The notes below the pieces were generated by a model. It saw only the letters and a list, made by a program, of their open reading frames with translations. It ran no database searches and was not told the origin of the DNA. A stretch of 24,813 bases of DNA, from the IMG/VR virus record IMGVR_UViG_2529292921_000026; one strand, given 5' to 3'. This stretch comes from a virus (lineage: Duplodnaviria > Heunggongvirae > Uroviricota > Caudoviricetes). Shown here piece by piece: positions 1-24,813 of this stretch. Position 1 is the first letter of the stretch. Each line of letters opens with the position of its first letter. Position numbers and translations under genes: made by a program.

Positions 1-420
1 ATGACGGATTATCAGCCATACAGGAAAGGAACTGTGCTTGCCCCAACTGGACCATGCAATCATCTTCATGTGATTTGTAATGATCCTGTTTATTACCCCG
101 TTAACGATTGTTATTGTGTTTTAGTTGTTAATATTTCTAGTATCAAGGATGGTGTCCCCCACGATCCGTCTTGCGTCTTGAATTCTGGTGATCATCGCTT
201 TATCAAGCATCCAAGTTATGTTGTTTACGCTGAAGCTATAATTTGGCGAGTGGATAACATGGTTAGAAAGCAGCGATCGGGTGAGATTTCTGTTCATGAT
301 GATATGCCAGAAGCTACATTCAATAGAATTCTGGACGGTTTTGATATCTCTGATGAAGTTACGCCAAAGAACCTTAAATTTAAAAATAAATATTGCGTAT
401 CATCTATTGATGATGAGTAA
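1..420 (+). CDS. hypothetical protein (139 aa), AT-rich moron-like gene
   Basis: ORF starts with ATG at window position 1 and stops at 418-420. Local composition is visibly more AT-rich than the flanking phage genes. No family recognised from the translation. Being at the window edge, the true start may lie upstream. Confidence 0.4.
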   Translation: MTDYQPYRKGTVLAPTGPCNHLHVICNDPVYYPVNDCYCVLVVNISSIKDGVPHDPSCVLNSGDHRFIKHPSYVVYAEAIIWRVDNMVRKQRSGEISVHDDMPEATFNRILDGFDISDEVTPKNLKFKNKYCVSSIDDE

Positions 421-459
421 ACAACAGGAATTGTTTCGGTATAACTTCTGGAGTTTTCT

Positions 460-633
460 ATGGAAGATCAAAAAGCAACCAAGCCACAGGTTAAGTTCGA
501 CACAATGAAAGCATTCGTAGGTATGGGTGCTGCTGTTGAAGTTCTGATGAAGGCTGCTCCTAATGCGTTCACTCACGCTACTGTCTCTGGTAAAGAGCAG
601 CAGGGTAAGCTTCGTCGTCTCAAAGCAGCATGA
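460..633 (+). CDS. small hypothetical protein (57 aa)
   Basis: ATG at 460 is preceded by GGAG (450-453) with a 6-nt spacer. The 57-codon ORF (MEDQKATKPQVKFDTMKAF...) is below the ORF-track cutoff. Stop at 631-633 is followed 20 bp later by a strong terminator. Confidence 0.35.
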   Translation: MEDQKATKPQVKFDTMKAFVGMGAAVEVLMKAAPNAFTHATVSGKEQQGKLRRLKAA

Positions 634-653
634 TCATAGCTGGTGCTTTTTGA

Positions 654-682
654 AAACCCGCCTTCAGGCGGGTTTTTTCTTT
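654..682. terminator. bidirectional rho-independent terminator between convergent genes
   Basis: Perfect 6-bp GC stem CCCGCC(657-662)/GGCGGG(667-672) with a 4-nt loop, followed by TTTTTTCTTT on the plus strand and preceded by AAAA (a T-run on the minus strand). It sits between the plus-strand ORF ending at 633 and the minus-strand ORF ending at 681. Confidence 0.6.
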
Positions 683-962
683 AGTGATTTTCTTTGCCCT
701 TCTGTTTGACTGTTCTGACCTGTTCCCACTCGATACGTCCTTCTTCTCGCCTTTTGTCTATGTATTCCGCAAGATCCTGAATATTGATGCAACGTTTTGC
801 TTTTTGTGATGTGCCGATGCGATATGTTGGAACGGGCAACTTACAAGCGTTTGCTTTTGCTTCTGCCGTGGCTGGACTCATACCAAAGTACTTTTGGCTA
901 ACTGCTGAGAGTTCAATGTTTGGGGTATTGAATTCAGCCATCAGTAAAAACAAGGTGTTCAT
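681..962 (-). CDS. phage DNA-binding regulatory protein, PrtN (pyocin activator)-like
   Basis: Translation MNTLFLLMAEF...FGMSPATAEAKANACKLPVPTYRIG...DLAEYIDKRREEG matches my recollection of PrtN-family small phage regulators. ATG at 962-960 has GGAG 6 nt upstream; alternative in-frame starts at 974 (ATG) and 989 (GTG). Confidence 0.5.
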   Translation of the reverse strand: MNTLFLLMAEFNTPNIELSAVSQKYFGMSPATAEAKANACKLPVPTYRIGTSQKAKRCINIQDLAEYIDKRREEGRIEWEQVRTVKQKGKENH

Positions 963-998
963 AATTTTCTCCATCAAAACCGGCTGCACCCGGGAAAA

Positions 999-1571
999 TC
1001 ATAATTCTGTGCTGGTGGCAGGAATTAATTTCTGCCAGATAGCGGAAACATATTTTGCCTGATGACGGGCATCAGCCAGGGCGTTGTGCCGTTCGCCATC
1101 GAAAGGCATGTCCATTTTGGGGTCGAATCCGATGGAACGCCCAAGCGTAACGATCGTGCGTACATCGTGGTCATTCCAGTACGCCCACGGGCAGATTTGT
1201 CCTGCTCGCTCGTAAGCTCCACGTAAAATTACGTTGTCGAAGGTGGCCCCGTTACCCCAGACTTTTAAATATTTCGTATTGTCTGCGTGCCGGTTAATGA
1301 AATGGTTTAGTTCTGAGAGAGCATCGCTGATCGACAAAGTATCATCAATACAGATTGCAGCTCGCGCTTCAGGGCTTTGTTTCAACCACCACAGGATGGT
1401 ATCGCCGTCAGGTGTAGCTCCTTGCTTCATAGCACTGTCTAGGCTGACAACCGCATAGAATTCTTGTCCGATGTCTCCGGTTTCTGGAGTGAAGAACACC
1501 GCGCCAATGGAAACGATCGGTGCATCCTTATTTTTCCCCATCGTCTCAAGGTCGATCATTAAGTTGTTCAT
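999..1571 (-). CDS. DnaQ-like (DEDD family) 3'-5' exonuclease
   Basis: N-terminal MIDLETMG (DxE exo motif I) and C-terminal H-x4-D (ERHNALADARHQA) are typical of DEDDh exonucleases. ATG at 1571-1569 overlaps the upstream stop (TGATG), with AGGAGG upstream. Confidence 0.6.
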   Translation of the reverse strand: MNNLMIDLETMGKNKDAPIVSIGAVFFTPETGDIGQEFYAVVSLDSAMKQGATPDGDTILWWLKQSPEARAAICIDDTLSISDALSELNHFINRHADNTKYLKVWGNGATFDNVILRGAYERAGQICPWAYWNDHDVRTIVTLGRSIGFDPKMDMPFDGERHNALADARHQAKYVSAIWQKLIPATSTEL

Positions 1572-2215
1572 CACTTCACCTCCTGCGGCGGTTCCGGTAG
1601 CGGCATCCAGTGAGTTGCTTGCTCAATACCATTACCCGGCTTAATCGTTGCATCTCCGCGCCGAAAGGTGCTTCCGGTATAGCGTGCGGAGCATATTAGC
1701 GGTTCAACCAGAGAGCTATCGAAATTCACCGAAATAAGCACGTTCTGGCCCTTTTCAGGCATTCGATCACTACAGCTTATCCAACCATCCGGAGTTACCG
1801 GAGAGTTGCCGGGTTCTTTAATGTGCAAGCGAGGCTCACCATCTTTTGGTTCAGGCCACTGGCGCTTCATGTTGATCTTCAATTTATCTTCCATAGCAGC
1901 GGTAATTTCAGCATCGCTGATGCCAGCACGGCGCTGTGCATCCCACAACAGAAACTGCATATCAGCCCACTCGCCAAGATCGTCTGGTTCGGCTGCGGCT
2001 TCCAGTGCCTCTTTTGAGAGATGTTTCAGCGGACCAATGGGGCCAACGCAGCCAAATGTGGAGTCAGACCATTTGGCATGCTCGTGGCGAATCTGTTCGC
2101 GTTCCAGTGATGCCAGTGCAATTCGTGCCAGTTCCATTTGTTCGCCACGAGTAAGTCCGTTATCAAGCGGATTTTTAATGAATAATTTGATACGTTCTTT
2201 GGTTATAGCGCTCAT
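1571..2215 (-). CDS. phage protein with C-terminal DUF551 domain and N-terminal MazG-like/DUF550-type region
   Basis: C-terminus WISCSDRMPEKGQNVLI...THWMPLPEPP is the characteristic DUF551 signature of lambdoid phages. ATG at 2215 has AAGGAG upstream and the stop overlaps the next gene's start. Confidence 0.55.
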   Translation of the reverse strand: MSAITKERIKLFIKNPLDNGLTRGEQMELARIALASLEREQIRHEHAKWSDSTFGCVGPIGPLKHLSKEALEAAAEPDDLGEWADMQFLLWDAQRRAGISDAEITAAMEDKLKINMKRQWPEPKDGEPRLHIKEPGNSPVTPDGWISCSDRMPEKGQNVLISVNFDSSLVEPLICSARYTGSTFRRGDATIKPGNGIEQATHWMPLPEPPQEVK

Positions 2216-11082: not shown

Positions 11083-13537
<2,455 letters not shown>

Positions 13538-14092
13538 TCTTTTGCCCGTCCATATTCAACGGCTTCTTTGAGGAGTTCATTTTCCATCGTTTTCTTGCCG
13601 AGCAGGCGCTGGAGTTCTTTAATCTGCTTCATGGCGGCAGCAAGTTCAGAGGCAGGAACAACCTGTTCTCCGGCGGCCACAGCAGTAAGACTTCCTTCCT
13701 GGTATTGCTTACGCCAGAGAAATAACTGGCTGGCTGCTACACCATGTTGCCGGGCAACGAGGGAGACCGTCATCCCCGGTTCAAAGCTCTGCTGAACAAT
13801 TGCGATCTTTTCCTGTGTGGTACGCCGTCTACGTTTCTCCGGCCCTAAGACATCAATCATCTGTTCTCCAATGACTAGTCTAAAAACTAGTATTAAGACT
13901 ATCACTTAAATAAGTGATACTGGTTGTCTCGAGATTCAGGGGGCCAGTCTAGGTGTGAAAAGCAAGCGTGCGAACGGAAGTAGATGGCAATTCATTGCAT
14001 TACTTCAGAAAAACTTTTTCAGGAAACGAGCTAAGGGCGTCAACCAACGCCCTGTAGCATAAGCTCAGGCACCGGATGCCGTTTTACAGGCT

Positions 14093-14824
14093 TCACCTGC
14101 CATCCAGAAGATGTCCCGACCAACGACTGCAACCATAATTACGTTGACCTGAACCGTCATGCAGCTTCGTTTCATTTTTCACGAGATAACGGGCTCTCTC
14201 CAGGGCTTTCTGCATCGCTTCTACATCACCACGCTTGATCCAGAGAACAGCGGCTTCACCAGACTTTTTGTCTGAAGCCTTCCTGGTATCAGAACATCCA
14301 CCCGACAAAGGCGTGTCATCGGAAGAAGGGCGAGCATCAGACGATGCTGGTTTACGGGAAGGCGTCCACCTGGAAAAATGGACTAGGCCATCGCCTTGCC
14401 AGGGCTCAAGATGCAGGGCGCTGCACCATGCCTCCTGGATCATCGTCGCCAGCGAAGACGGTTCGCTGAAATCCCCGAGCGAGCACCAGGTATCTTTGTT
14501 GAGCAGTAATATTACGTGATAATGTTTCCTGCCATACATCTTGCCGAACTCCCGGCACCAGAAATAACCCAAGCTGGTTGCATGCACACGCTGATTGGCA
14601 CATCTTTTTTTCCGCTGGTAAGCCTGAATTTTGGCTTTCAGGGATGCAAAAAAACGAGAAATTACCGCTGAATCCGGATCGGGATCCATGATGGTGACAG
14701 GCATATACTCAGGGAAACGTAAATCCTCCCGGATTAACGAGACGGCACGGTGCTGCGACAGAGCACTGTCGAGAAGGCTGTCAAAACGGGATAACCAGTA
14801 AGCATTGTGTATTGGTTGATTCAT
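14093..14824 (-). CDS. inovirus Gp2-like protein (YfjJ/YagK family of CP4-type islands)
   Basis: 243-aa ORF (MNQPIHNAYWLSRFDSLLDSALSQHRAVS...). The N-terminus and context match the yfjJ/yagK family as I recall it. The start faces the AT-rich region. Confidence 0.5.
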   Translation of the reverse strand: MNQPIHNAYWLSRFDSLLDSALSQHRAVSLIREDLRFPEYMPVTIMDPDPDSAVISRFFASLKAKIQAYQRKKRCANQRVHATSLGYFWCREFGKMYGRKHYHVILLLNKDTWCSLGDFSEPSSLATMIQEAWCSALHLEPWQGDGLVHFSRWTPSRKPASSDARPSSDDTPLSGGCSDTRKASDKKSGEAAVLWIKRGDVEAMQKALERARYLVKNETKLHDGSGQRNYGCSRWSGHLLDGR

Positions 14825-16315
14825 GATGAGAGATCTCCGTTGATTTGGATTGACTTCACATCATTAATCACCGCGGTAAAACTTTACGGCATCCGGCATT
14901 GAGCAATGCTACAACTCTCTGATTAAGAGTGATTGAAACGGAACAAACCATCCCGGAACGAAAAGATAATCCTACACGCAGGGTAAAAACACTCAAGAAC
15001 AGCGAATGGATTTAAAAACGACATGGACAACGAGAAAAGTCAGAAGGGAAAAGGATCCACAGAACATTCGAACAAAACACCAGAAACGCAACCAGAACGC
15101 TTCCTGGTAATGCAAATCAACAACAACCCCAAAACCTACAGCTTAATCACACAACTCAATCACGGATGCGAATGACACGTTTAAAACCTGTTTACAGATA
15201 ACGCCGTTACACGATCATCCCCATCAGAATCGATTTTCCCTTCCGGAAAGCGTTATGTTTCACTACGCACCATAAAAACGATTAACCATCGATAACGTAA
15301 ACTTCATCTGAATCAAAACTCCAAAACCGTTCATCACACTTTCGCAATGCAAGAAGAAACCTCATGACGAAAGCAATAACCTTACACGGAAAAGAAAAAC
15401 GTCAGGAATCGTTAATGCCTCAATCTGATTGTTATCAAAACATCCAGAAAGTCGTTTAACAGAATCGTCGTAAGTATATCGAAAAGAACGTCAGATTACT
15501 TCAGGAAAGTTCGGGTTGATTTAGCGTAAAGATACTTTTCTCATGCCAACGTCGAAACTCGAAATCTCAGGAAAGGTTAAACGTAACATCAGTAAAATTG
15601 AATAGCAGATTGATTGCTGAAGCAGAAAGGTTTTACAGCAGCATTAAACTGATTTAGTTAACGTAAAGATTTACTAAACTGGATGTGTATAGCAATGCTT
15701 AACGAAAACACTCGTAGAAGTGTTTATGAAAATACGTGTATAACACTTACTGAAATGCTTAGTTAAATACGTGTATATAGTATCATACCGACATTAGCAA
15801 CATTCTCAGACACTCATGCAGACTGAATGTTGATTACCCGTTTTCACATCAGGCATGGTTCTTTACTGACCAAAAAACAAACTGGTTTACTCTTGAATTA
15901 TTTTCTCTACCTCAGAAAACATGGTCTCAGGAATCTGCTATGGTTTCATAGTTTCTGTTGTTTTTTCATAAAAGTTATAAGTCATTGTCATAATCATACG
16001 ATAATCACTTTATGTTAGTTTTTACTGTCACACGCTACTGACTTTTTCAGTCATTGCCAGAAAGGGGCTCTTTTTACTTCCATTTCACCACTCAACAAAT
16101 GCAAAACTTGTCCAGTAAAGCGGACCACCTCTTGCTCACAAGCAACGAATCATCTCCAGGAACAGCCCTCAAACATTGCAGAAACAAAAACAACAAAACC
16201 CTCATTATCACTGATGTTCGGAAAATTTCCCGGAACAAAAAAACGAAAACAAAATGAGACGCATTATCATTAATGTAGTCAAAAAGACGTTATGGTGGCT
16301 TTCAGTTAAATGGTA
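14825..16315. other. 1.5-kb AT-rich, A-biased region without convincing ORFs, containing short direct repeats
   Basis: No ORF of 60 aa or more on either strand across 14825-15826, and only two low-complexity ORFs after that. Direct repeats TGATTTAG..CGTAAAGAT (about 15517 and 15650) and AAATACGTGTATA (15730 and 15766), and a hairpin AAACACT-CGTAGA-AGTGTTT (15705-15724). Confidence 0.4.
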
Positions 16316-17446
16316 CTATTTCTCATAAATCCACTTAACTTTTTTTACTGATTCATCCCAGATAACCACTTTATCAGTAAAAAATGAATTATATAGATTG
16401 ACGAGTTTTTCTGTTTCAGTTATTCCCAATGTATTATGTATCAGTTGTAGATATGCTTTTATCCAGATTTCTTTACCCTCCCTCCACTTATCTATAAAAC
16501 TTTCCAGCTTACTTAATCGTTGATTTATAAAAAACGAATCAATATCATGAAAAAGCTCAACAAGAAAACAGCACGAGACAATCTCAACAAAAAACAAATT
16601 CTCCTTAAAAGTATTATAAAACCTTATCAACACATAACGAAAAACACCTCCTGTTAATCTTTCCTGTTCATAAAACAACAAACCAAAAACAGGAGGAAAT
16701 CTTTTAACCACACCACTTTTAATCCAGTAAGGATGATGATTAGTCTTTACTGGCAGTGAATAAAAGAACAATTCGGTTTCTCTTTTCCCACCACAAACAG
16801 ACAAAACTGTCTTATAAAGACTTTTTGAATCATTATGTCCTGATACCCCAGACGAATTAGCAGAGTATTTTCTTTTTACTTTTTGCCTTAATGGAGCTGG
16901 AAGAATAATAAAACGGGATGGCAGATAACAATCGCTTTCAGAAGACCGGCATTCGCACACATGAAGATTTATATTTACATCCGGACAATTCAAAAACCAC
17001 ACAGAATAATTATCGCACCGTTTGCAATATGAAACCCATGAATAAATTGCATAAAGTTCAGAAAGCGCATCTAACTCTGCTTTTGAATTAAATGTGATAC
17101 CGTTTCTTCGAATTCTCGTTTCCAGCGTTCTCCATGCCGGGGTTTTCAGTATCTCACGAACTTTTTTATTAAGTTCAGCCAGAGATGGTCCCTGCTCCTG
17201 TTTATGTTTCGTCCTGCTGTTAATGATTTCTCTTTCTTTTACTAATTTCCTCTTTCTTTTTGGGCCTTCTACCTTTCTTGGCAATGCTTCATTTAATCTG
17301 TGAACAGGATTTTGCTCTCTTCTTTTTTTGAGCTCACAAAACCTCTCATAATGTTTTCTGCACAGTCTTTTCTCCACTGCCATTTTTACTGAGAAAACCT
17401 GATTGTTACAATTTTTTCTGACACATTTGTTTTTACGTCCGGTCAT
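16316..17446 (-). CDS. uncharacterised 376-aa protein: Lys/Arg-rich N-terminus with Cys clusters (zinc-ribbon-like) and an aromatic-rich C-terminal domain
   Basis: ATG at 17446 has AGGAG 8 nt upstream. N-terminus has C-x4-C ... C-x2-H-x4-C (KCVRKNCNN...LCRKHYERFC), with a second cluster YCKRCDNYSVWFLNCPDVNINLHVCEC. Codon usage is AT-rich and foreign-looking. No family recognised. Confidence 0.5.
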   Translation of the reverse strand: MTGRKNKCVRKNCNNQVFSVKMAVEKRLCRKHYERFCELKKRREQNPVHRLNEALPRKVEGPKRKRKLVKEREIINSRTKHKQEQGPSLAELNKKVREILKTPAWRTLETRIRRNGITFNSKAELDALSELYAIYSWVSYCKRCDNYSVWFLNCPDVNINLHVCECRSSESDCYLPSRFIILPAPLRQKVKRKYSANSSGVSGHNDSKSLYKTVLSVCGGKRETELFFYSLPVKTNHHPYWIKSGVVKRFPPVFGLLFYEQERLTGGVFRYVLIRFYNTFKENLFFVEIVSCCFLVELFHDIDSFFINQRLSKLESFIDKWREGKEIWIKAYLQLIHNTLGITETEKLVNLYNSFFTDKVVIWDESVKKVKWIYEK

Positions 17447-17637
17447 CCTCTCATCTCCTGAAACAGCAGTATGTCATTAGTTCCCGTTCTGAAAAACTGA
17501 CGCCATACTCCATTACACTTTAACAATAATGTCCGTAATTCAGACATTCCATCATTTTTCACGCCCATATTACCTGAATGATAAACCGGATTAGTGTGAT
17601 CCGGTTCAGTGAAATCAACAGGATACCGGTATGTCAT
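17443..17637 (-). CDS. doubtful small ORF (64 aa) upstream of and coupled to the 376-aa gene
   Basis: ATG at 17637-17635 overlaps the GTPase start codon region on the opposite strand, and the stop overlaps the 376-aa start (ATGA). This stretch may instead be a divergent promoter region. Confidence 0.2.
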   Translation of the reverse strand: MTYRYPVDFTEPDHTNPVYHSGNMGVKNDGMSELRTLLLKCNGVWRQFFRTGTNDILLFQEMRG

Positions 17638-18515
17638 TCAGCCATTCTTCCCTCTCCGCACAAGTGAAATCATATCTGACGTTTCTTCCTGAAGAAATTC
17701 GTCAGAAAATTCTTGAACATCTCCACAGCGTTATTCATTACGAACCCGTGATTGGCATTATGGGTAAATCCGGCACCGGCAAAAGTAGCCTGTGTAATGC
17801 TATTTTTCAGTCCCATATCTGTGCCACGCATCCCCTGAACGGCTGCACCCGCCAGGCTCATCGTCTTACCCTGCAGATCGGTGAACGCAGAATGACGCTG
17901 GTCGATCTGCCCGGCATTGGAGAGACGCCGCAACATGATCAGGAATACCGGGCGCTTTACCGTCAGTTACTGCCGGAAGTGGATTTGATTATCTGGATCC
18001 TGCGGGCAGATGAACGCGCGTATGCCGCCGACATTACCATGCATCAGTTTTTACTGAATGAAGGCGCAGATCCCTCGCGTTTTCTGTTTGTTCTCAGCCA
18101 TGCCGATCGCGTGTTTCCTGCTGAAGAATGGAATGCCACAGAAAAATGCCCGTCCCGTCAGCAGGAACTCTCACTGGCGACGGTGACAGCCCGGGTGGCA
18201 ACCCTGTTCCCTTCATCATTTCCGGTACTCTCCGTTGCTGCACCTGTCGGCTGGAACCTTCCGGCGTTTGTGTCGCTGATGATCCACGCACTGCCACCAC
18301 AGGCAACCAGCGCGGTGTATTCACATATCCGGGGAGAAAACCGCTCTGAACAGGCCCAGAAACACGCACAACAGACTTTTGGTGAAACCATCGGGAAAAG
18401 TTTTGACGTCGCCGTTGCCCGTTTCAGTTTTCCGGCCTGGATGTTACAGCTTCTGCGTAAAGCCCGGGACCGCATTATCCACCTGCTGATCACACTGTGG
18501 GAGCGTCTGTTCTGA
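17631..18515 (+). CDS. YeeP/YfjP/YkfA-family GTPase (50S ribosome-binding GTPase-like)
   Basis: P-loop GIMGKSGTGKSS (G1) and DLPG (G3) are present. Overall the sequence matches the CP4-island GTPase family as I recall it. Confidence 0.8.
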   Translation: MSFSHSSLSAQVKSYLTFLPEEIRQKILEHLHSVIHYEPVIGIMGKSGTGKSSLCNAIFQSHICATHPLNGCTRQAHRLTLQIGERRMTLVDLPGIGETPQHDQEYRALYRQLLPEVDLIIWILRADERAYAADITMHQFLLNEGADPSRFLFVLSHADRVFPAEEWNATEKCPSRQQELSLATVTARVATLFPSSFPVLSVAAPVGWNLPAFVSLMIHALPPQATSAVYSHIRGENRSEQAQKHAQQTFGETIGKSFDVAVARFSFPAWMLQLLRKARDRIIHLLITLWERLF

Positions 18516-18530
18516 CACACTCACGCCGAC

Positions 18531-18653
18531 AGGATGTGTCGCTGGATTAACGAGCATTCTTCTTTTTATGAAATCATGCTTAAAAATCAGATAATTAAAA
18601 GAATATTTTTTCTGCTGCATTTTATTCCTGATTATCCGGATGCGACACATCCT
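18531..18653. promoter_or_regulatory. 12-bp perfect inverted repeats flanking an AT-rich spacer between the GTPase and WYL-regulator genes
   Basis: AGGATGTGTCGC (18531-18542) and GCGACACATCCT (18642-18653) are exact reverse complements; the right copy lies inside the palindrome GGATGcgacaCATCC. Confidence 0.3.
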
Positions 18654-18717
18654 TTCAACATCATGATGCATAATAACATCATGAAATAAAAGATGTTTTC
18701 TTACGGAGTGCACATCT

Positions 18718-19398
18718 ATGTCTGATAATCGTTCCCGGCATGATCGCCTGGCGGTTCGCTTATCACTCATTATCAGCCGACTGATGGCCGGAGAATCTCT
18801 GTCACTAAAAACACTGTCAGATGAATTTGGCGTTACAGAACGTACTTTACAGCGCGATTTTCATCAGCGTCTGGTTCACCTGGATTTAGAGTACAGAAAT
18901 GGCAGGTACAGCCTCAGACGACAGAGCAGCCCAGGTGCGATCCCTGAAATGCTTTCTTTTATACAGAATACCGGGATCGCACGGATACTTCCGCTCCGGA
19001 ACGGACGACTGATAACCTGTCTTACCGACAACCAGGAGCCCTCTCCCTGCCTTATCTGGCTACCGGCGCCGGATATCACTGCAACGTTCCCCGAGTGTTT
19101 CTCGCAACTCATCCTGGCAATAAGACAGTGTATCCACATCTCTCTGATGACTGAGCGATGGTATCCGTCACTGGAGCCCTGCCGGCTCATTTATTACAGC
19201 GGTAGCTGGTATCTGATCGCGTTACAGAAGGGAAAACTGCAGGTCTTTCCTCTGGCAGATATCAAATCAGTCAGCCTGACATCAGAACGGTTTGAACGGA
19301 GAGGCCACATCCACAGTCTGGTCGCTGAAGAGCGTTTTATCTCCGCCCTGCCACATTTCTCTTTCATCCATAAACTTATCAACACCTTTAACCTGTGA
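18718..19398 (+). CDS. WYL-domain transcriptional regulator (YfjR-like, HTH plus WYL)
   Basis: N-terminal HTH (SLKTLSDEFGVTERTLQRDF) and a WYL signature (YYSGSWYLIA). ATG at 18718 with GGAG upstream. Confidence 0.7.
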   Translation: MSDNRSRHDRLAVRLSLIISRLMAGESLSLKTLSDEFGVTERTLQRDFHQRLVHLDLEYRNGRYSLRRQSSPGAIPEMLSFIQNTGIARILPLRNGRLITCLTDNQEPSPCLIWLPAPDITATFPECFSQLILAIRQCIHISLMTERWYPSLEPCRLIYYSGSWYLIALQKGKLQVFPLADIKSVSLTSERFERRGHIHSLVAEERFISALPHFSFIHKLINTFNL

Positions 19399-19545
19399 TC
19401 GCCGGCCTGCCAAAGCCGTCCCGACAGGTATGGAGACAATATGTTGAACAGAAAACTAAATATACGGCTACGTCATTCCCTGAACAGTTACTGCATACCT
19501 TCCATCATTATCAATAACACCGTACGTTCATTTCAGAGGTCAGTC

Positions 19546-20223
19546 ATGAATACCAGAGCTCTTTTTCCCCTGCTGTTCACTGTGGCATCATTCTCCGCCT
19601 CCGCCGGCAACTGGGCTGTCAAAAACGGCTGGTGTCAGACCATGACGGAAGATGGTCAGGCGCTGGTAATGCTGAAAAATGGCACGACTGGTATTACCGG
19701 CCTGATGCAGGGATGCCCGAATGGCGTACAGACGCTCCTGGGCAGCCGTATCAGTATTAACGGTAACCTGATCCCCACATCACAAATGTGTAATCAGCAG
19801 ACGGGATTCAGGGCTGTTGAGGTGGAAATCGGACAGGCGCCGGAAATGGTCAAAAAAGCCGTTCACTCCATAGCAGAGCGTGATGTGTCCGTTTTACAGG
19901 CATTTGGTGTACGAATGGAATTCACCCGCGGTGATATGCTGAAGGTCTGTCCGAAATTTGTCACATCACTTGCCGGTTTTTCCCCGAAACAGACGACCAC
20001 TATTAATAAAGATTCCGTCCTGCAGGCTGCCCGGCAGGCATACGCCCGGGAATATGACGAGGAAACAACAGAAACCGCTGATTTTGGCTCTTACGAAGTA
20101 AAAGGCAATAAGGTTGAGTTTGAAGTATTCAATCCTGAAGACCGTGCGTACGACAAAGTGACCGTCACGGTTGGTGCTGACGGTAATGCCACCGGCGCCA
20201 GCGTTGAATTTATCGGAAAATAG
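19546..20223 (+). CDS. secreted protein with signal peptide, unknown function
   Basis: ATG at 19546 has AGAGG 6 nt upstream. N-terminus [23 protein letters not shown] is a Sec signal peptide. The ORF track's upstream extension lacks an RBS. Confidence 0.5.
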
Positions 20224-20228
20224 CCGGT

Positions 20229-20462
20229 ATGTCGGACTGCCACCCTGTTTTATTGCCCGAAGGCCCTTTCTCACGCGAACAGGCGGTTGCCGTCACAACA
20301 GCTTACCGCAATGTGCTTATTGAAGATGACCAGGGAACGCATTTCCGGCTGGTTATCCGCAATGCCGAAGGGCAGCTACGCTGGCGGTGCTGGAATTTTG
20401 AACCTGATGCCGGAAAACAGCTAAATTCGTATCTCGCCAGTGAGGGAATTCTCAGGCAATAA
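20229..20462 (+). CDS. DUF905-family small protein (YkfF/YpjJ-like)
   Basis: 77-aa ORF ([57 protein letters not shown]...) in the expected position of this family in CP4-type islands. Confidence 0.6.
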
Positions 20463-20485
20463 ACGTCTTCATTTCATCCATCAGG

Positions 20486-20518
20486 CCGCGTCTTCTCCGG
20501 GAGACGTGGCTTTTTCAT
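20486..20518 (+). terminator. rho-independent terminator after the DUF905 gene
   Basis: 10-bp stem (with G-U pairs) CCGCGTCTTC / GGGAGACGTGG around a tetraloop, followed by CTTTTTCATTT. Confidence 0.5.
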
Positions 20519-20560
20519 TTATTACACCAGTAAATCTTAACCACCGATAAGGAGCAAATT

Positions 20561-21379
20561 ATGCGACTAGCCAGTCGTTTTGGTTATGCGAACCAGATAC
20601 GCCGTGACCGTCCGCTGACACACGAAGAACTGATGCACTATGTGCCGGGGATTTTCGGGGAAGATAAACACACGTCCCGAAGCCAGAACTATACGTACAT
20701 CCCCACCATCACCGTACTGGAAAGCCTGCAGAGGGAAGGCTTTCAGCCATTCTTCGCCTGCCAGACCCGTGTGCGCGACCCGGGCCGCCGGGGATACACA
20801 AAACACATGCTGCGTCTGCGGCGGGCCGGAGAGATAAACGGAGAACATGTCCCTGAAATTATTCTGCTCAACTCTCATGACGGTACCTCCAGCTACCAGA
20901 TGCTGCCGGGTTACTTCAGGTTCGTCTGCCAGAACGGATGCGTCTGTGGTCAGTCTCTGGGGGAAGTGCGTGTTCCGCACCGGGGAAATGTGGTGGACAG
21001 AGTCATTGAAGGGGCTTACGAGGTGGTGGGCGTGTTTGACCGGATTGAGGAAAAGCGTGATGCCATGCAGTCGCTGATTCTGCCGCCACCGGCACGCCAG
21101 GCGCTGGCACAGGCGGCACTGACTTACCGTTATGGTGACGAACATCAGCCCGTCACCACCGCCGACATTCTGACGCCACGACGCCGGGAGGATTACGGTA
21201 AGGACCTGTGGAGTGCTTATCAGACCATTCAGGAGAATATGCTGAAAGGCGGAATTTCAGGTCGCAGCGCTAAAGGAAAACGTATCCATACCCGTGCCAT
21301 TCACAGCATTGACACTGACATTAAGCTCAACCGCGCATTGTGGGTGATGGCGGAAACCCTGCTGGAGAGCCTGCGCTGA
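20561..21379 (+). CDS. DUF932-family protein (YfjQ/YafZ-like)
   Basis: 272-aa ORF with AAGGAG RBS upstream. Sequence and position match the DUF932 paralogs of CP4-44/CP4-57/CP4-6 as I recall them. Confidence 0.65.
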   Translation: MRLASRFGYANQIRRDRPLTHEELMHYVPGIFGEDKHTSRSQNYTYIPTITVLESLQREGFQPFFACQTRVRDPGRRGYTKHMLRLRRAGEINGEHVPEIILLNSHDGTSSYQMLPGYFRFVCQNGCVCGQSLGEVRVPHRGNVVDRVIEGAYEVVGVFDRIEEKRDAMQSLILPPPARQALAQAALTYRYGDEHQPVTTADILTPRRREDYGKDLWSAYQTIQENMLKGGISGRSAKGKRIHTRAIHSIDTDIKLNRALWVMAETLLESLR

Positions 21380-21433
21380 TTCAGCCATTACCCTGAAAAC
21401 CACGCATTTATTTGTCCTTTAAGGAGTCATTTC

Positions 21434-21919
21434 ATGAAAACCATTTCACATAATTCCACCACATCTTCTGTTTCCGTAACCGCTGCATCAGGGAATGACC
21501 AGCCTCAGCTGGTTGCCACCATAGTCCCTGATGAACAGCGCATCAGCTTCTGGCCGCAGCATTTTGGCCTCATTCCACAGTGGGTGACCCTGGAGCCCCG
21601 TATCTTCGGCTGGATGGACCGTCTTTGCGAAGACTACTGCGGTGGTATCTAGAATCTGTACACACTGAACAACGGTGGCGCATTTATAGCGCCCGAACCG
21701 GATGACGATGATGGCGAAACATGGGTACTGTTCAATGCCATGAACGGTAACCGCGCTGAAATGAGCCCGGAAGCCGCCGGCATTGCTGCCTGTCTGATGA
21801 CGTACAGTCATCACGCCTGTCGTACGGAGTATTATGCCATGACGGTCCATTATTACCGGCTGCGGGATTACGCCCTGCAGCATCCGGAATGCAGCGCCAT
21901 TATGCGCATCATCGACTGA
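21434..21919 (+). pseudogene. antirestriction protein (KlcA/ArdB-like, YfjX/YafX/YeeS family) interrupted by an in-frame TAG
   Basis: A single 161-codon frame runs from ATG 21434 to TGA 21917-21919, with an amber codon at 21650-21652 (codon 73). Both halves read as antirestriction-family sequence (...FGWMDRLCEDYCGGI * NLYTLNNGGAFIAPEPDDDDGETWVLFNAMNG...). Confidence 0.6.
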
Positions 21920-21934
21920 ATGGAGGCAGGGACA

Positions 21935-22411
21935 ATGCAGCAGCTTTCCTTTCTGCCCGGAGAAATGACGCCCGGCGAGCGCAGTCTCATTCTGCGGGCT
22001 CTGAAAACCCTGGACCGCCATCTTCATGAACCCGGTGTGGCCTTCACCTCCACCCGTGCGGCACGGGAATGGCTGATTCTGAACATGGCGGGACTGGAGC
22101 GTGAAGAGTTCCGGGTGCTGTATCTGAACAACCAGAATCAGTTGATTGCCGGTGAAACCCTCTTCACCGGCACCATCAACCGCACGGAAGTCCATCCCCG
22201 TGAAGTGATTAAACGCGCCCTGTATCACAATGCCGCTGCTGTGGTGCTGGCACACAATCACCCGTCCGGTGAAGTCACACCCAGCAAGGCAGACCGCCTT
22301 ATCACGGAACGTCTGGTACAGGCACTGGGCCTGGTGGATATCCGGGTGCCGGACCATCTGATAGTCGGTGGCAGCCAGGTTTTCTCCTTTGCCGAACATG
22401 GTCTGCTTTAA
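21935..22411 (+). CDS. RadC-like JAB/MPN-domain protein (YeeS/YfjY/YkfG family)
   Basis: JAB metalloprotease motif HNHPSGEVTPSKAD. ATG at 21935 has GGAGG 9 nt upstream. The translation from MQQLSFLPGEMTPGER... matches this family. Confidence 0.75.
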   Translation: MQQLSFLPGEMTPGERSLILRALKTLDRHLHEPGVAFTSTRAAREWLILNMAGLEREEFRVLYLNNQNQLIAGETLFTGTINRTEVHPREVIKRALYHNAAAVVLAHNHPSGEVTPSKADRLITERLVQALGLVDIRVPDHLIVGGSQVFSFAEHGLL

Positions 22412-22473
22412 CCCGTCACAACCACATCACACCTGTTTTCACTTTTATCTTCTGTCTTCAGAGGTATCCCACT

Positions 22474-22695
22474 ATGAAAATCATCACCCGTGGCGAAGCC
22501 ATGCGTATTCACCGTCAGCATCCGGCATCCCGTCTTTTTCCGTTCTGTACCGGCAAATACCGCTGGCACGGCAGTGCTGAAGCGTATACCGGTCGTGAAG
22601 TGCAGGATATTCCCGGTGTGCTGGCCGTGTTTGCAGAACGCCGTAAGGACAGTTTTGGTCCGTATGTCCGGCTGATGAGCGTCACCCTGAACTGA
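22474..22695 (+). CDS. DUF987-family protein (YeeT/YkfH-like)
   Basis: 73-aa ORF MKIITRGEAMRIHRQHPASRLFPFCTGKYRWHGSAEAYTGREVQDIPGVLAVF... is near-identical to YeeT as I recall it. Confidence 0.7.
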   Translation: MKIITRGEAMRIHRQHPASRLFPFCTGKYRWHGSAEAYTGREVQDIPGVLAVFAERRKDSFGPYVRLMSVTLN

Positions 22696-22857
22696 TGTTC
22701 CGTCACCCGGAAAACGAGTACGACTGGCTGAGCTCAGACGCCGCTGTGGATGAGGTCCTGCTCATCAACGAATACACCTTTACCGAAGCCGGTCTGCGCG
22801 CCGGCTGACCCGTCATCGTTAAACTATCATTCACCGATTTTCTGTGAGGATTTTATC

Positions 22858-23226
22858 GTGTCAGACACACTTTCCGGGACAACGCATCCCGATGACAATG
22901 ACGACCATCCCTGGTGGGGACTACCCTGCACAGTGACGCCCTGTTTCGGCGCCCGTCTGGTGCAGGAGGGTAACCGGTTGCATTACCTTGCCGACCGTGC
23001 CGGTATCAGAGGCCGGTTCAGCGATGCAGATGCGTACCACCTGGACCAGGCCTTTCCGCTGCTGATGAAACAACTGGAACTCATGCTCACCAGCGGTGAA
23101 CTGAATCCCCGCCATCAGCATACCGTCACGCTGTATGCAAAAGGTCTGACCTGCAAAGCTGACACTCTCGGTAGCGGTGGTTACGTTTATCTGGCTGTTT
23201 ATCCGACGCCCGAAACGAAAAAGTAA
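22858..23226 (+). CDS. cbeA: type IV antitoxin CbeA (YeeU family)
   Basis: GTG at 22858 has GAGGA 7 nt upstream and gives 122 aa ([52 protein letters not shown]...), matching YeeU. It lies immediately upstream of the toxin gene. Confidence 0.75.
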
Positions 23227-23315
23227 ACCACCGGAATAACCTTCTGCTCCGGCCTGGTGCTTTCACCACGCCACTTTTCCATTTTTCATCTCTGCATATC
23301 AGGAAAACCTTCAGT

Positions 23316-23693
23316 ATGAAAACATTACCCGATACACACGTACGGGAGGCATCGAGCTGCCCGTCTCCCGTCACCATCTGGCAGACTCTGCTCTCCCGAC
23401 TACTGGGCCAGCATTACGGCCTTACACTGAATGACACACCGTTCGCCGATGAACGTGTGATTGAGCAGCATATTGAAGCTGGCATTTCACTGTGCGATGC
23501 AGTGAACTTTCTTGTTGAAAAATACGCACTGGTGCGTACCGACCAGCCGGAATTCAGTGCCTGTACCCGCTCTCAGTTAATAAACAGCATCGATATCCTC
23601 CGGGCTCGCCGGGCGACTGGCCTGATGACCCGCGACAATTACCGAACGGTAAATAACATTACCCTGGGTAAGTATCAGGAGGCGAAACGATGA
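23316..23693 (+). CDS. cbtA: type IV toxin CbtA (YeeV family; cytoskeleton-targeting)
   Basis: 125-aa ORF (MKTLP...[54 protein letters not shown]...) is closest to YeeV among the paralogs I can recall. Confidence 0.8.
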
Positions 23694-24178
23694 AACTGGC
23701 CCTGACGCTGGAAGCTGACAGCGTTAACGTGCAGGCACTGAACATGGGGCGCATTGTCGTTGACGTCGATGGTGTTAATCTCACTGAACTGATTAATAAC
23801 GTCGCTGAAAACGGTTATTCACTCCGTGTGGTGGAGGAATCCGACCAACAGTCAACCTGCACACCTCCGCCATTTGCAACCCTTGCCGGCATACGCTGCA
23901 GTACCGCACATATCACGGAAACGGACAACGCCTGGTTGTACTCGCTGTCACACCAGACCAGGGACGTTGGTGAATCAGAATGGATTCATTTTACAGGTAC
24001 CGGTTATCTGTTACGTACTGATGCGTGGTCGTACCCGGTTCTGCGGCTTAAGCGCCTGGGCCTGTCAAAAACGTTCCGTCGTCTGGTTGTCACACTTACC
24101 CGACGTTATGGCGTCAGTCTCATTCATCTGGATGCCAGCGCTGAATGCCTGCCGGGTTTACCCACTTTCGACTGGTAA
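23690..24178 (+). CDS. YeeW-like protein (DUF5983)
   Basis: 162-aa ORF whose start overlaps the cbtA stop (ATGA), in the conserved position downstream of the toxin in CP4-type islands. Confidence 0.6.
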
Positions 24179-24189
24179 CCAGAAACAAC

Positions 24190-24387
24190 ATGAAATCATT
24201 AACCACGGAAACAGCGCTGGATATTCTGATTGCGTGGCTGCAGGACAATATCGACTGCGAATCGGGAATTATCTTTGACAACAATGAGGATAAAACGGAT
24301 TCAGCAGCACTGTTGCCCTGTATCGAACAGGCCAGAGAGGATATCCGTACCCTGCGCCAACTGCAGCTTCAGCACCAGAACCGGTGA
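24190..24387 (+). CDS. small hypothetical protein (65 aa)
   Basis: ATG at 24190 (MKSLTTETALDILIAWLQDNIDCESGIIFDNNED...), followed by a terminator. The ORF track's longer version starts inside the yeeW-like gene. Confidence 0.35.
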   Translation: MKSLTTETALDILIAWLQDNIDCESGIIFDNNEDKTDSAALLPCIEQAREDIRTLRQLQLQHQNR

Positions 24388-24427
24388 GTCTCACTCATCA
24401 TCTCACTCACCAGACTTCATTCCACTG

Positions 24428-24460
24428 ACGCCAGCCTGAACACGGCTGGCGTTTTCATTT
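24428..24460 (+). terminator. rho-independent terminator
   Basis: 9-bp stem ACGCCAGCC(24428-24436) / GGCTGGCGT(24444-24452) with a 7-nt loop, followed by TTTCATTT. Confidence 0.5.
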
Positions 24461-24483
24461 ATCTGCAAAAAGGAATATCGATT

Positions 24484-24813
24484 ATGTCTGAAATCACAGT
24501 CTCCCGTCCGGAAGTGGTCAACGAGAATACGGACGTTATCTGCTCCACCTCAGTCAGGTCCAGGTCACTGGAATATGATAATTTTCCGGAAATCAGCGAA
24601 GCGAACATTCTGAGCACATTTGAACAACTGCACCAGAACAAAGATGAAGTGTTTGAACGGGGAGTGATCAACGTCTTCAAAGGGCTGAGCTGGGATTACA
24701 AAACCAACTCACCCTGTAAATTTGGCAGTAAAATTATCGTCAACAATCTGGTGAGATGGGACCAGTGGGGATTTCATCTTATCAGTGGAATGCAGGCAGA
24801 TCAGCCTGGCTGA
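24484..24813 (+). CDS. hypothetical protein (109 aa)
   Basis: ATG at 24484 with AAAGGAATATCG upstream. The frame's stop codon coincides with the last three bases of the window. No motif recognised. Confidence 0.4.
   Translation: MSEITVSRPEVVNENTDVICSTSVRSRSLEYDNFPEISEANILSTFEQLHQNKDEVFERGVINVFKGLSWDYKTNSPCKFGSKIIVNNLVRWDQWGFHLISGMQADQPG

Follow-up and report, generated by a model that had tools for sequence, protein, structure and literature searches.

A predicted PanA-PanT toxin-antitoxin pair carried as mobile cargo near the dusA end of an Escherichia coli lambdoid prophage

Genes and signals at the left end of the window

The stretch of DNA analysed here (the window, 24,813 nucleotides of IMG/VR virus record IMGVR_UViG_2529292921_000026) opens with two ATG-initiated open reading frames on the plus strand, which code for proteins of 139 and 57 amino acids and are present as claimed in the original prediction made from the letters of this DNA (Table 1). 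They converge, as also noted there, on two minus-strand genes with which a leftward early operon of lambdoid type ends and which belong to the context of the cassette rather than to the cassette itself. Escherichia phage Lys8385Vzw and several E. coli chromosomes match the first 700 nucleotides with 100% identity.

Table 1. Features at and around the panA-panT locus (window coordinates; negative positions lie to the left of the window)
Feature	Position	Strand	Basis
panA, 190-aa Panacea-domain gene, predicted antitoxin	-568..4 (L001 5432-6004)	+	PF13274
panA TGA stop; rest of the gene left of position 1	2..4	+
panT, 139-aa predicted toxin gene of a PanA-PanT type II pair	1..420	+	ORF calls, homologues, synteny, model
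3' end of the 1.2-kb swapped panA-panT segment	421..446	+	blastn; homology to the phrog_4350 allele resumes at 447
Shine-Dalgarno GGAG of orf57, 6 nt before the ATG	450..453	+	sequence
orf57, conserved 57-aa protein gene (phrog_2741)	460..633	+	PHROGs, homologues, dN/dS
Intrinsic terminator, GAAAACCCGCC-TTCA-GGCGGGTTTTT followed by TCTTT	652..677	+	hairpin scan, folding
PrtN-family excisionase-like gene, last of the leftward early operon	681..989	-	PF11112, 4e-23
Rv2179c-like 3'-5' exonuclease gene	999..1574	-	Pfam

In the identical genomes that carry sequence upstream of position 1, the ATG of the 139-codon gene, panT, overlaps by four nucleotides (ATGA) the stop codon of panA, a gene of which the window retains only the end. 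The panA product is a standalone Panacea/DUF4065 domain that matches Pfam family SocA_Panacea (PF13274) with E = 2.2e-19 and 70.9 bits, for a gathering cut-off of 25.7, and is named 'Panacea domain-containing protein' in RefSeq. The overlap suggests that panT is translationally coupled to panA. Because the window edge cuts off panA, the cassette was mis-delimited originally: it had been described as the two genes visible in the window, while the actual pair consists of panA and panT and the 57-aa ORF (orf57) lies outside the exchanged segment. A putative panA promoter with 9 of 12 consensus positions lies inside the cassette; such matches are no commoner than in shuffled sequence.

A stop codon lies in frame eight codons 5' of the panT ATG, with no other start between the two in the identical genomes. 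This shows the ORF to be complete: the stop rules out a longer gene running in from upstream, an eventuality raised in the original prediction. Residues 1-11 are conserved across homologues (P6 is nearly invariant and G10 invariant), which places the panT start at the ATG of position 1 and not at the GTG of position 34 selected by PGAP.

Both ORFs had been described as AT-rich. This is so for panT, whose GC content is 38.3% (30.7% at third codon positions) versus 48.4% for the whole window, but not for orf57, whose 47.1% falls between the 43.0% of the neighbouring xis-like gene and the 49.3% of the exonuclease gene. The ribosome-binding site attributed to orf57 is found at the expected distance from its ATG.

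The rightward transcript is closed by a GC-rich hairpin of 11 pairs followed by a T-run, with 4 nt between it and the end of the xis-like gene that runs towards it. For the segment 630-690 the folding energy is -21.5 kcal/mol (z = -3.9), a value reached by 0 of 200 shuffled versions, so the terminator is indeed strong. The case for its presumed bidirectionality is weak: the scan calls it on the plus strand only, and in the minus-strand reading CAAAAAG comes after the hairpin. The only Rfam matches are sub-threshold look-alikes of terminator hairpins. The terminator had been assigned to the cassette as its own, but it is part of a conserved flank and was not brought in by the cassette.

An exchangeable slot between dusA and the excisionase gene

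The prophage is integrated in dusA. Comparison by blastn with E. coli O157:H7 and with phage mEp460 places the boundaries of an exchanged segment at L001 5238/5239 and 6446/6447, the latter being window position 446/447; other matches to the window likewise begin at 447 or 450. Between flanks that are identical in the two alleles, the slot holds either the 1.2-kb panA-panT segment (L001 5239-6446) or a 0.8-kb segment with a gene for a 177-aa protein of phrog_4350, which is the content of the O157 and mEp460 alleles examined. Among 5,426 complete E. coli genomes, the orf57-bearing right flank occurs in 562, and about 205 of these have panT as well when counted at a threshold of at least 95% identity. 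Enterotoxigenic strain H10407 carries panAT and orf57, and an additional CoiA-like gene is inserted at the terminator.

This alternation, taken with the distinct composition of panT and the position next to the attachment site, bears out the original suggestion of moron-like accessory cargo at a prophage end. The panA-panT pair appears to be a 1.2-kb mobile element lodged in a lambdoid prophage, with the dusA attachment site on one side and the excisionase end of the prophage on the other, where it replaces the phrog_4350 gene.

The history of orf57 is a different one. Its product matches phrog_2741, a PHROGs family of unknown function, at 1e-34. Its homologues are always 57-58 amino acids long, share 63-98% identity across Enterobacteriaceae and have an invariant core (KFDT..AF.GMGAAVEVLMKAAP), and divergent copies of the gene evolve with dN/dS of about 0.2. 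A search within 3-4 kb of PanT at 29 other loci found no orf57 homologue. At the other sites inspected orf57 always stands behind a phrog_4350 gene, at a spacing of 145-195 nt. Salmonella and mEp460 have this arrangement at the dusA prophage end, Franconibacter and Hafnia in the Q-antiterminator/holin slot, and in Hafnia a RelA_SpoT-domain gene is found further upstream. In the window the replacement of the native region upstream of orf57 comes to within 3 nt of its Shine-Dalgarno sequence. From these comparisons orf57 is seen to be a real gene of the prophage backbone and of another module (phrog_4350 plus phrog_2741), not of the PanA-PanT pair; most simply, it would be the surviving downstream partner of the phrog_4350 gene that was replaced. 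As no terminator separates panT from orf57, transcription of panAT probably continues into orf57.

The AlphaFold2 model of the orf57 product is of low confidence (pLDDT 62.6), with a helical stretch at residues 15-37 between basic tails. The 177-aa phrog_4350 protein gave no Pfam match and only chance matches in the PDB; a GNAT-like motif suspected in it by eye is unsupported on these grounds.

The PanT family and the predicted fold of PanT

Scans of the 139-aa and 57-aa products against Pfam, NCBIfam and PADLOC returned nothing meaningful, PADLOC and NCBIfam being without a model for the panA-panT pair. In PHROGs the 139-aa protein matches phrog_19071, again a family of unknown function. PanT has nevertheless 62 close homologues, and a profile search extends the family to about 2,700 clusters at 50% identity (E <= 1e-3). 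No common family emerged from a Pfam scan of 113 diverse members.

The loci inspected for a conserved neighbourhood comprised Shewanella and Proteus loci and 26 species genomes, from which the ORF ending at the start of the panT homologue was extracted. This gave 27 informative loci from Gamma-, Beta- and Alphaproteobacteria, to which Pseudomonas phage Sirocco and Yersinia phage YeP1 were added. A Panacea gene lies directly upstream of the panT homologue at 29 of these 29 loci, which range from E. coli to Alphaproteobacteria and include temperate phages; its ORF abuts or overlaps the panT start at all 27 bacterial loci, and likewise in Sirocco and YeP1. The overlap is mostly of 4 or 1 nt, that of the window pair being 4 nt. 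The outer flanks, on the other hand, are unrelated between the Shewanella, Proteus, Yersinia phage, Pseudomonas phage and E. coli loci. In Shewanella the pair is flanked by a P4-type integrase island, in Proteus it occupies the tail end of a prophage beside Abi_2, S8-peptidase and ABC-ATPase genes, in YeP1 it neighbours the integrase gene and in Sirocco the portal gene. The conserved neighbourhood is thus confined to a unit of two or three genes. Nine deposited phage genomes carry the pair.

PanA-PanT systems were defined by Kurata et al. 2022 (PMC8832971) through such a conserved two-gene neighbourhood, and nine pairs were validated. Within the accessible part of their Dataset S1, the listing of toxin cluster T6 includes WP_101821906.1 of Yersiniaceae bacterium 2016Iso4. 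By exact look-up this Chimaeribacter protein is one of the homologues of the window gene (P0276), with 57% identity over 93% of the 139-aa ORF. The same part of the listing gives pairs from Pantoea septica LMG 5345, Proteus vulgaris, Pluralibacter gergoviae, Photorhabdus and others. One of the loci analysed here (L015) is from P. septica LMG 5345 and has the same overlap of 4 nt as the T6 pair of that strain, the two being matched by strain and not by accession; Proteus and Pluralibacter are also among the genera that yielded homologues of the 139-aa ORF. To judge from sequence relationships and from what is accessible of the T6 listing, the 139-aa product belongs to this catalogued cluster. 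The original prediction had recognised no family for it, a view that is superseded, but had named toxin-antitoxin functions among the candidates, and it is as the PanT of a PanA-PanT pair that the protein is now classified. The E. coli proteins WP_000458584, WP_014640052 and WP_000390073 were not found in the accessible parts of the supplements to Kurata et al. 2022 and Ernits et al. 2023.

One member of T6 has been characterised. The PanT of P. moraviensis (WP_083201923.1) is toxic, is rescued by its PanA and pulls PanA down, and it selectively blocks incorporation of 35S-methionine, i.e. translation; it has no CDD match and is MazF-like by HHpred (PMC8832971). This protein is absent among the 120 matches listed in the homology search with broad alignment, and its relation to the window PanT passes through phage Sirocco. 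The amino terminus of Sirocco PanA, MIFSEQKVAQ, is exactly the ten-residue stretch put back into P. moraviensis PanA by Kurata et al., and the Sirocco genes overlap by 1 nt, as in P. moraviensis. Sirocco PanT is in turn 48% identical to the window 139-aa ORF product (3e-39) and Sirocco PanA 49% identical to E. coli PanA (8e-43). The homology proposed between the window PanT and the validated P. moraviensis protein rests on this bridge and on membership in T6 as seen in the accessible listing.

PanT is predicted to adopt the SH3-like barrel fold of the MazF/CcdB type. Its AlphaFold2 model, built from an alignment of 39 sequences, has a pLDDT of 93.0 and a pTM of 0.86 and consists of five beta-strands, a helix, a short strand and two helices. 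In a Foldseek search of the PDB the matches ranked 1 to 44 are all toxins of the MazF/Kid family, with probabilities of 0.93-1.00 (mostly at least 0.97). Their TM-scores are 0.39-0.53 when normalised to the query and 0.50-0.65 when normalised to the target length, and the E-values are modest, from 1e-3 to 1e-1. CcdB, which is of the same fold class as MazF, is absent from the top 50 PDB matches. A Foldseek search of a viral library returned PemK-like or endoribonuclease proteins.

A link to MazF at the level of sequence was sought and not found. PF02452 (PemK_toxin) did not rise above noise in the 113 family members (one reached E = 0.11, the window ORF giving none), only chance matches came from searching PDB sequences with profiles of 39 and of 113 members, and hhalign of PanT against a five-sequence MazF profile gave a local probability of 0.4%. 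The residues kept across the 113 members are H21 (invariant), L22, V43, D55, C58, G63 and H65, as well as F67, S72, Y76, G113 and S117. The catalytic residues of E. coli MazF are R29, in beta2, and T52, at the end of beta3, and this Arg/Thr couple is not evidently conserved in the PanT family. When the two profiles are forced into a global alignment, which is statistically non-significant, the MazF topology is kept, including the Gly before beta1, and H21 falls beside MazF H28/R29 and 'VNISS' opposite 'VPCTT'.

Function of the pair and comparison with known systems

Very probably, then, window positions 1-420 are the PanT toxin gene of a PanA-PanT type II pair carried as mobile prophage cargo, with orf57 standing outside the pair. 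The two genes would be expressed as a bicistronic operon in which the antitoxin gene comes first and ATGA couples translation of the second. By analogy with the validated T6 member, PanT most likely arrests growth by inhibiting translation. The fold model combined with that member points to a MazF-fold toxin which most likely acts as an endoribonuclease. PanA would in all likelihood neutralise it by direct binding; antitoxins made of a standalone Panacea domain were reported to act directly on their toxin by Ernits et al. 2023 (PMC10440598). Orf57 retains its own ribosome-binding site and is probably reached by transcripts that continue from panAT to the shared terminator. The biological role of the pair might be stabilisation of the prophage, abortive infection, or both.

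A related reading, compatible with the toxin-antitoxin assignment and entertained here as a tentative one, is that the pair has been selected for anti-phage defence, by abortive infection or superinfection exclusion, the Panacea domain sensing infection and releasing PanT, and would be more than a simple addiction module. It draws on the lodging of the pair as prophage cargo in a variable slot next to the attachment site, on its company at the tail end of Proteus prophages (genes for Abi_2, S8-peptidase and ABC-ATPase), on the phage genomes that carry the pair, and on the sensory role of Panacea favoured by Ernits et al. 2023 (PMC10440598). That same study, however, finds direct neutralisation for the standalone type of domain to which PanA belongs, and PADLOC gave no match. 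That the genes are an inactive relic, with a PanT non-toxic in E. coli and hitch-hiking as neutral DNA, is very improbable. Some PanT candidates do fail in this host: of the 25 assayed by Kurata et al. 2022 (PMC8832971), 8 showed no toxicity in E. coli and rescue failed for 5. Here, however, panA and panT are intact and at least 99% conserved among the E. coli matches listed, and both the ATGA coupling and all family-invariant residues of PanT have been kept.

The chemistry of PanT might also differ from that of MazF, the protein having kept the scaffold and acquired another target: a gyrase poison in the manner of CcdB, which shares the fold class, or a His/Cys/Asp enzyme, possibly metal-dependent. 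The near-invariant H21, D55, C58 and H65, unlike the Arg/Thr of MazF, and the want of profile-level similarity speak for such a divergence. It is nonetheless judged unlikely, given a structural search in which all PDB matches are MazF/Kid until rank 45 with CcdB missing from the top 50, and given a validated T6 member that selectively hits protein synthesis and not DNA synthesis (PMC8832971). Were it correct, invariant His21 with near-invariant Asp55, Cys58 and His65 could form the alternative active site, possibly a metal-binding one. An extended form of the idea, in which T6 toxins use the MazF scaffold with a different active site, have a target or chemistry unseen among MazF-fold toxins and, in addition, serve a Panacea-triggered abortive infection by prophages, is likewise doubtful. 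The grouping implied originally, in which the 139-aa and 57-aa ORFs (alone or with panA) form one functional module, for instance with orf57 as a second antitoxin or regulator, appears highly implausible. The two genes lie on the same strand, 39 nt apart, without a terminator between them and with a common one behind, and the three non-synonymous and zero synonymous differences between the window and O157 copies of orf57 might be a trace of its adapting to a changed partner. Three substitutions cannot carry such an argument, though, and orf57 is missing near PanT at the 29 other loci, lies outside the swapped segment and elsewhere follows the phrog_4350 gene.

Since the PanA-PanT type of system has already been described, the current understanding of it is unchanged by a toxin-antitoxin pair at this locus; what is new is an E. 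coli-native, phage-borne copy of cluster T6. Its recognition corrects the annotation of about 200 complete E. coli genomes, O103, O157 and enterotoxigenic strains among them. In the phage and RefSeq records examined panT is labelled 'hypothetical protein', with a PGAP start 11 codons late, and in the record of Pseudomonas phage Sirocco the panT homologue is not called at all. A toxin-antitoxin module at a swappable cargo slot of prophages that integrate in dusA bears on prophage stability and possibly on phage exclusion. T6 being a large family whose activity is for the most part deduced, a member native to E. coli would make a convenient model.

Several known systems share part of these features. 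Prophage morons are independently transcribed cargo placed between phage modules, such as bor/lom and rexAB of lambda or stx in the Q-holin slot. The panA-panT pair resembles them in its presence or absence in otherwise collinear prophages, its distinct composition and its location at a module boundary next to the attachment site. Unlike morons with a terminator of their own, it would use the one inherited from the backbone gene orf57.

MazEF, Kis-Kid and PemIK are likewise bicistronic, with overlapping genes and the antitoxin first; their toxins have the SH3-like barrel with a C-terminal helix predicted for PanT, and an outcome of translation inhibition is expected in both cases. PanT differs from MazF, PemK and Kid in having no detectable sequence similarity to them, in conserving His21, Asp55, Cys58 and His65 and not evidently the Arg29 and Thr52 that MazF uses, and, in the model, by a beta1-beta2 loop reduced to a tight hairpin and by two extra C-terminal helices. 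Its partner is a Panacea-domain protein, while the antitoxins MazE, PemI and Kis are of the AbrB or RHH type.

The antitoxin domain of PanA, PF13274, is also that of SocAB from Caulobacter crescentus. SocAB is a type VI toxin-antitoxin system and SocA the founding Panacea protein; SocA acts as a ClpXP adaptor for degradation of SocB, a toxin that blocks the replication clamp. SocB is unrelated to PanT, and PanA scores 14 bits with the NCBIfam SocA equivalog, far under its cut-off of 190.

The closest parallel is the PanA-PanT pair of P. moraviensis. Both pairs have a standalone Panacea antitoxin encoded upstream of a toxin of about 130-140 amino acids without CDD or Pfam match, an overlap of 1 or 4 nt between the genes and a MazF-like toxin fold according to remote methods, and in the accessible listing the FlaGs cluster of the P. 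moraviensis pair, T6, also includes proteins closely related to the window PanT. They differ in setting: the P. moraviensis locus was scored 'NotPhage', whereas the pair of the window resides in an E. coli lambdoid prophage.

The phrog_2741-phrog_4350 module and divergence of orf57

The 57-aa gene orf57 (phrog_2741) is one half of a recurrent two-gene module whose other member, phrog_4350, codes for a protein of 177-179 aa; the two genes are separated by 145-195 nt. The module occupies differing moron slots. In E. coli, Salmonella and mEp460 it lies at the dusA end of the prophage. Franconibacter and Hafnia carry it in the Q-antiterminator/holin slot, and a gene coding for a RelA_SpoT-domain (toxSAS-like) protein is found immediately upstream of the Hafnia copy. 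A Pfam search with the phrog_4350 product gave no match. The GNAT-like 'R..G..' and 'YY.SFGF' pattern discerned by eye in the 177-aa protein was supported by no tool.

Coordinates of the module copies and of other features discussed in the text (window positions unless a locus is named)
Feature	Position	Strand
phrog_2741-phrog_4350 module	L009 2284-3187	
phrog_2741-phrog_4350 module	L039 3274-4174	
phrog_2741-phrog_4350 module	L044 3280-4174	
phrog_2741-phrog_4350 module	L036 2150-4174	
orf57 part of the module	460-633	
Near-palindrome upstream of panA	L001 5277-5290 (window -724..-711)	
1.3-kb insert, ETEC H10407	L049 2713-4039	
Equivalent of the H10407 insertion site	about 651-660	
PanT homologue, phage Sirocco	L050 1486-1884	
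Antisense 44-aa ORF, phage Sirocco	L050 1741-1875	
CP4-like part of window	about 11200-24813	
YagK/YfjJ-type protein (CP4-like part)	14093-14824	-
AT-richest stretch	15000-17500	
376-aa ORF	16316-17446	-
YeeP-like GTPase (CP4-like part)	17631-18515	+

Compared with the O157/mEp460 copy, window orf57 carries three amino acid changes, K2E, A20V and R54L, the second of which affects a near-invariant position; synonymous changes number 0 relative to O157 and about 1 relative to mEp460. These substitutions might reflect relaxed or altered selection once the phrog_4350 partner was lost, the sites being too few to judge.

The panA-panT segment, its flanks and its annotation

Within the swapped segment that carries the predicted toxin gene panT and its predicted antitoxin gene panA, the sole promoter-like -35 hexamer upstream of panA is overlapped by a 14-bp near-palindrome, TTGACCATGGTTAA, a possible operator or a chance occurrence. 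In ETEC H10407 the terminator, where orf57 meets the xis-like gene, is the exact insertion site of a 1.3-kb segment with a gene resembling 'competence protein CoiA', which gives this slot a second point at which cargo has been inserted.

Public records contain two annotation errors on panT. PGAP starts it at GTG (window 34; region concerned 1-36), yielding 128 aa, although conservation extends to residues 1-11 and the panA stop codon shares bases with the ATG. In the record of Pseudomonas phage Sirocco the PanT homologue is left unannotated, and an antisense 44-aa ORF is called instead. The 90%-identity protein cluster to which E. coli PanA belongs also has as members the PanT forms of 139 and 128 aa, which are unrelated to it, and a 'DUF4065' variant of 232 aa. 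The mixed PanA/PanT membership looks like a clustering oddity, perhaps originating from fused or mis-called ORFs across the ATGA junction.

Mosaic structure of the window

The AT-richest stretch of the window (GC 34-40%) has a strongly negative GC skew and includes a 376-aa ORF that found no match in a Pfam search. The window is a mosaic, covered to at most 53% by any complete E. coli genome. From about 11-13 kb on it matches a CP4-like island instead of the remaining lambdoid prophage, and codes there for a YagK/YfjJ-type protein, a YeeP-like GTPase and DUF932, together with IS elements; the prophage seems truncated or recombined at this position.
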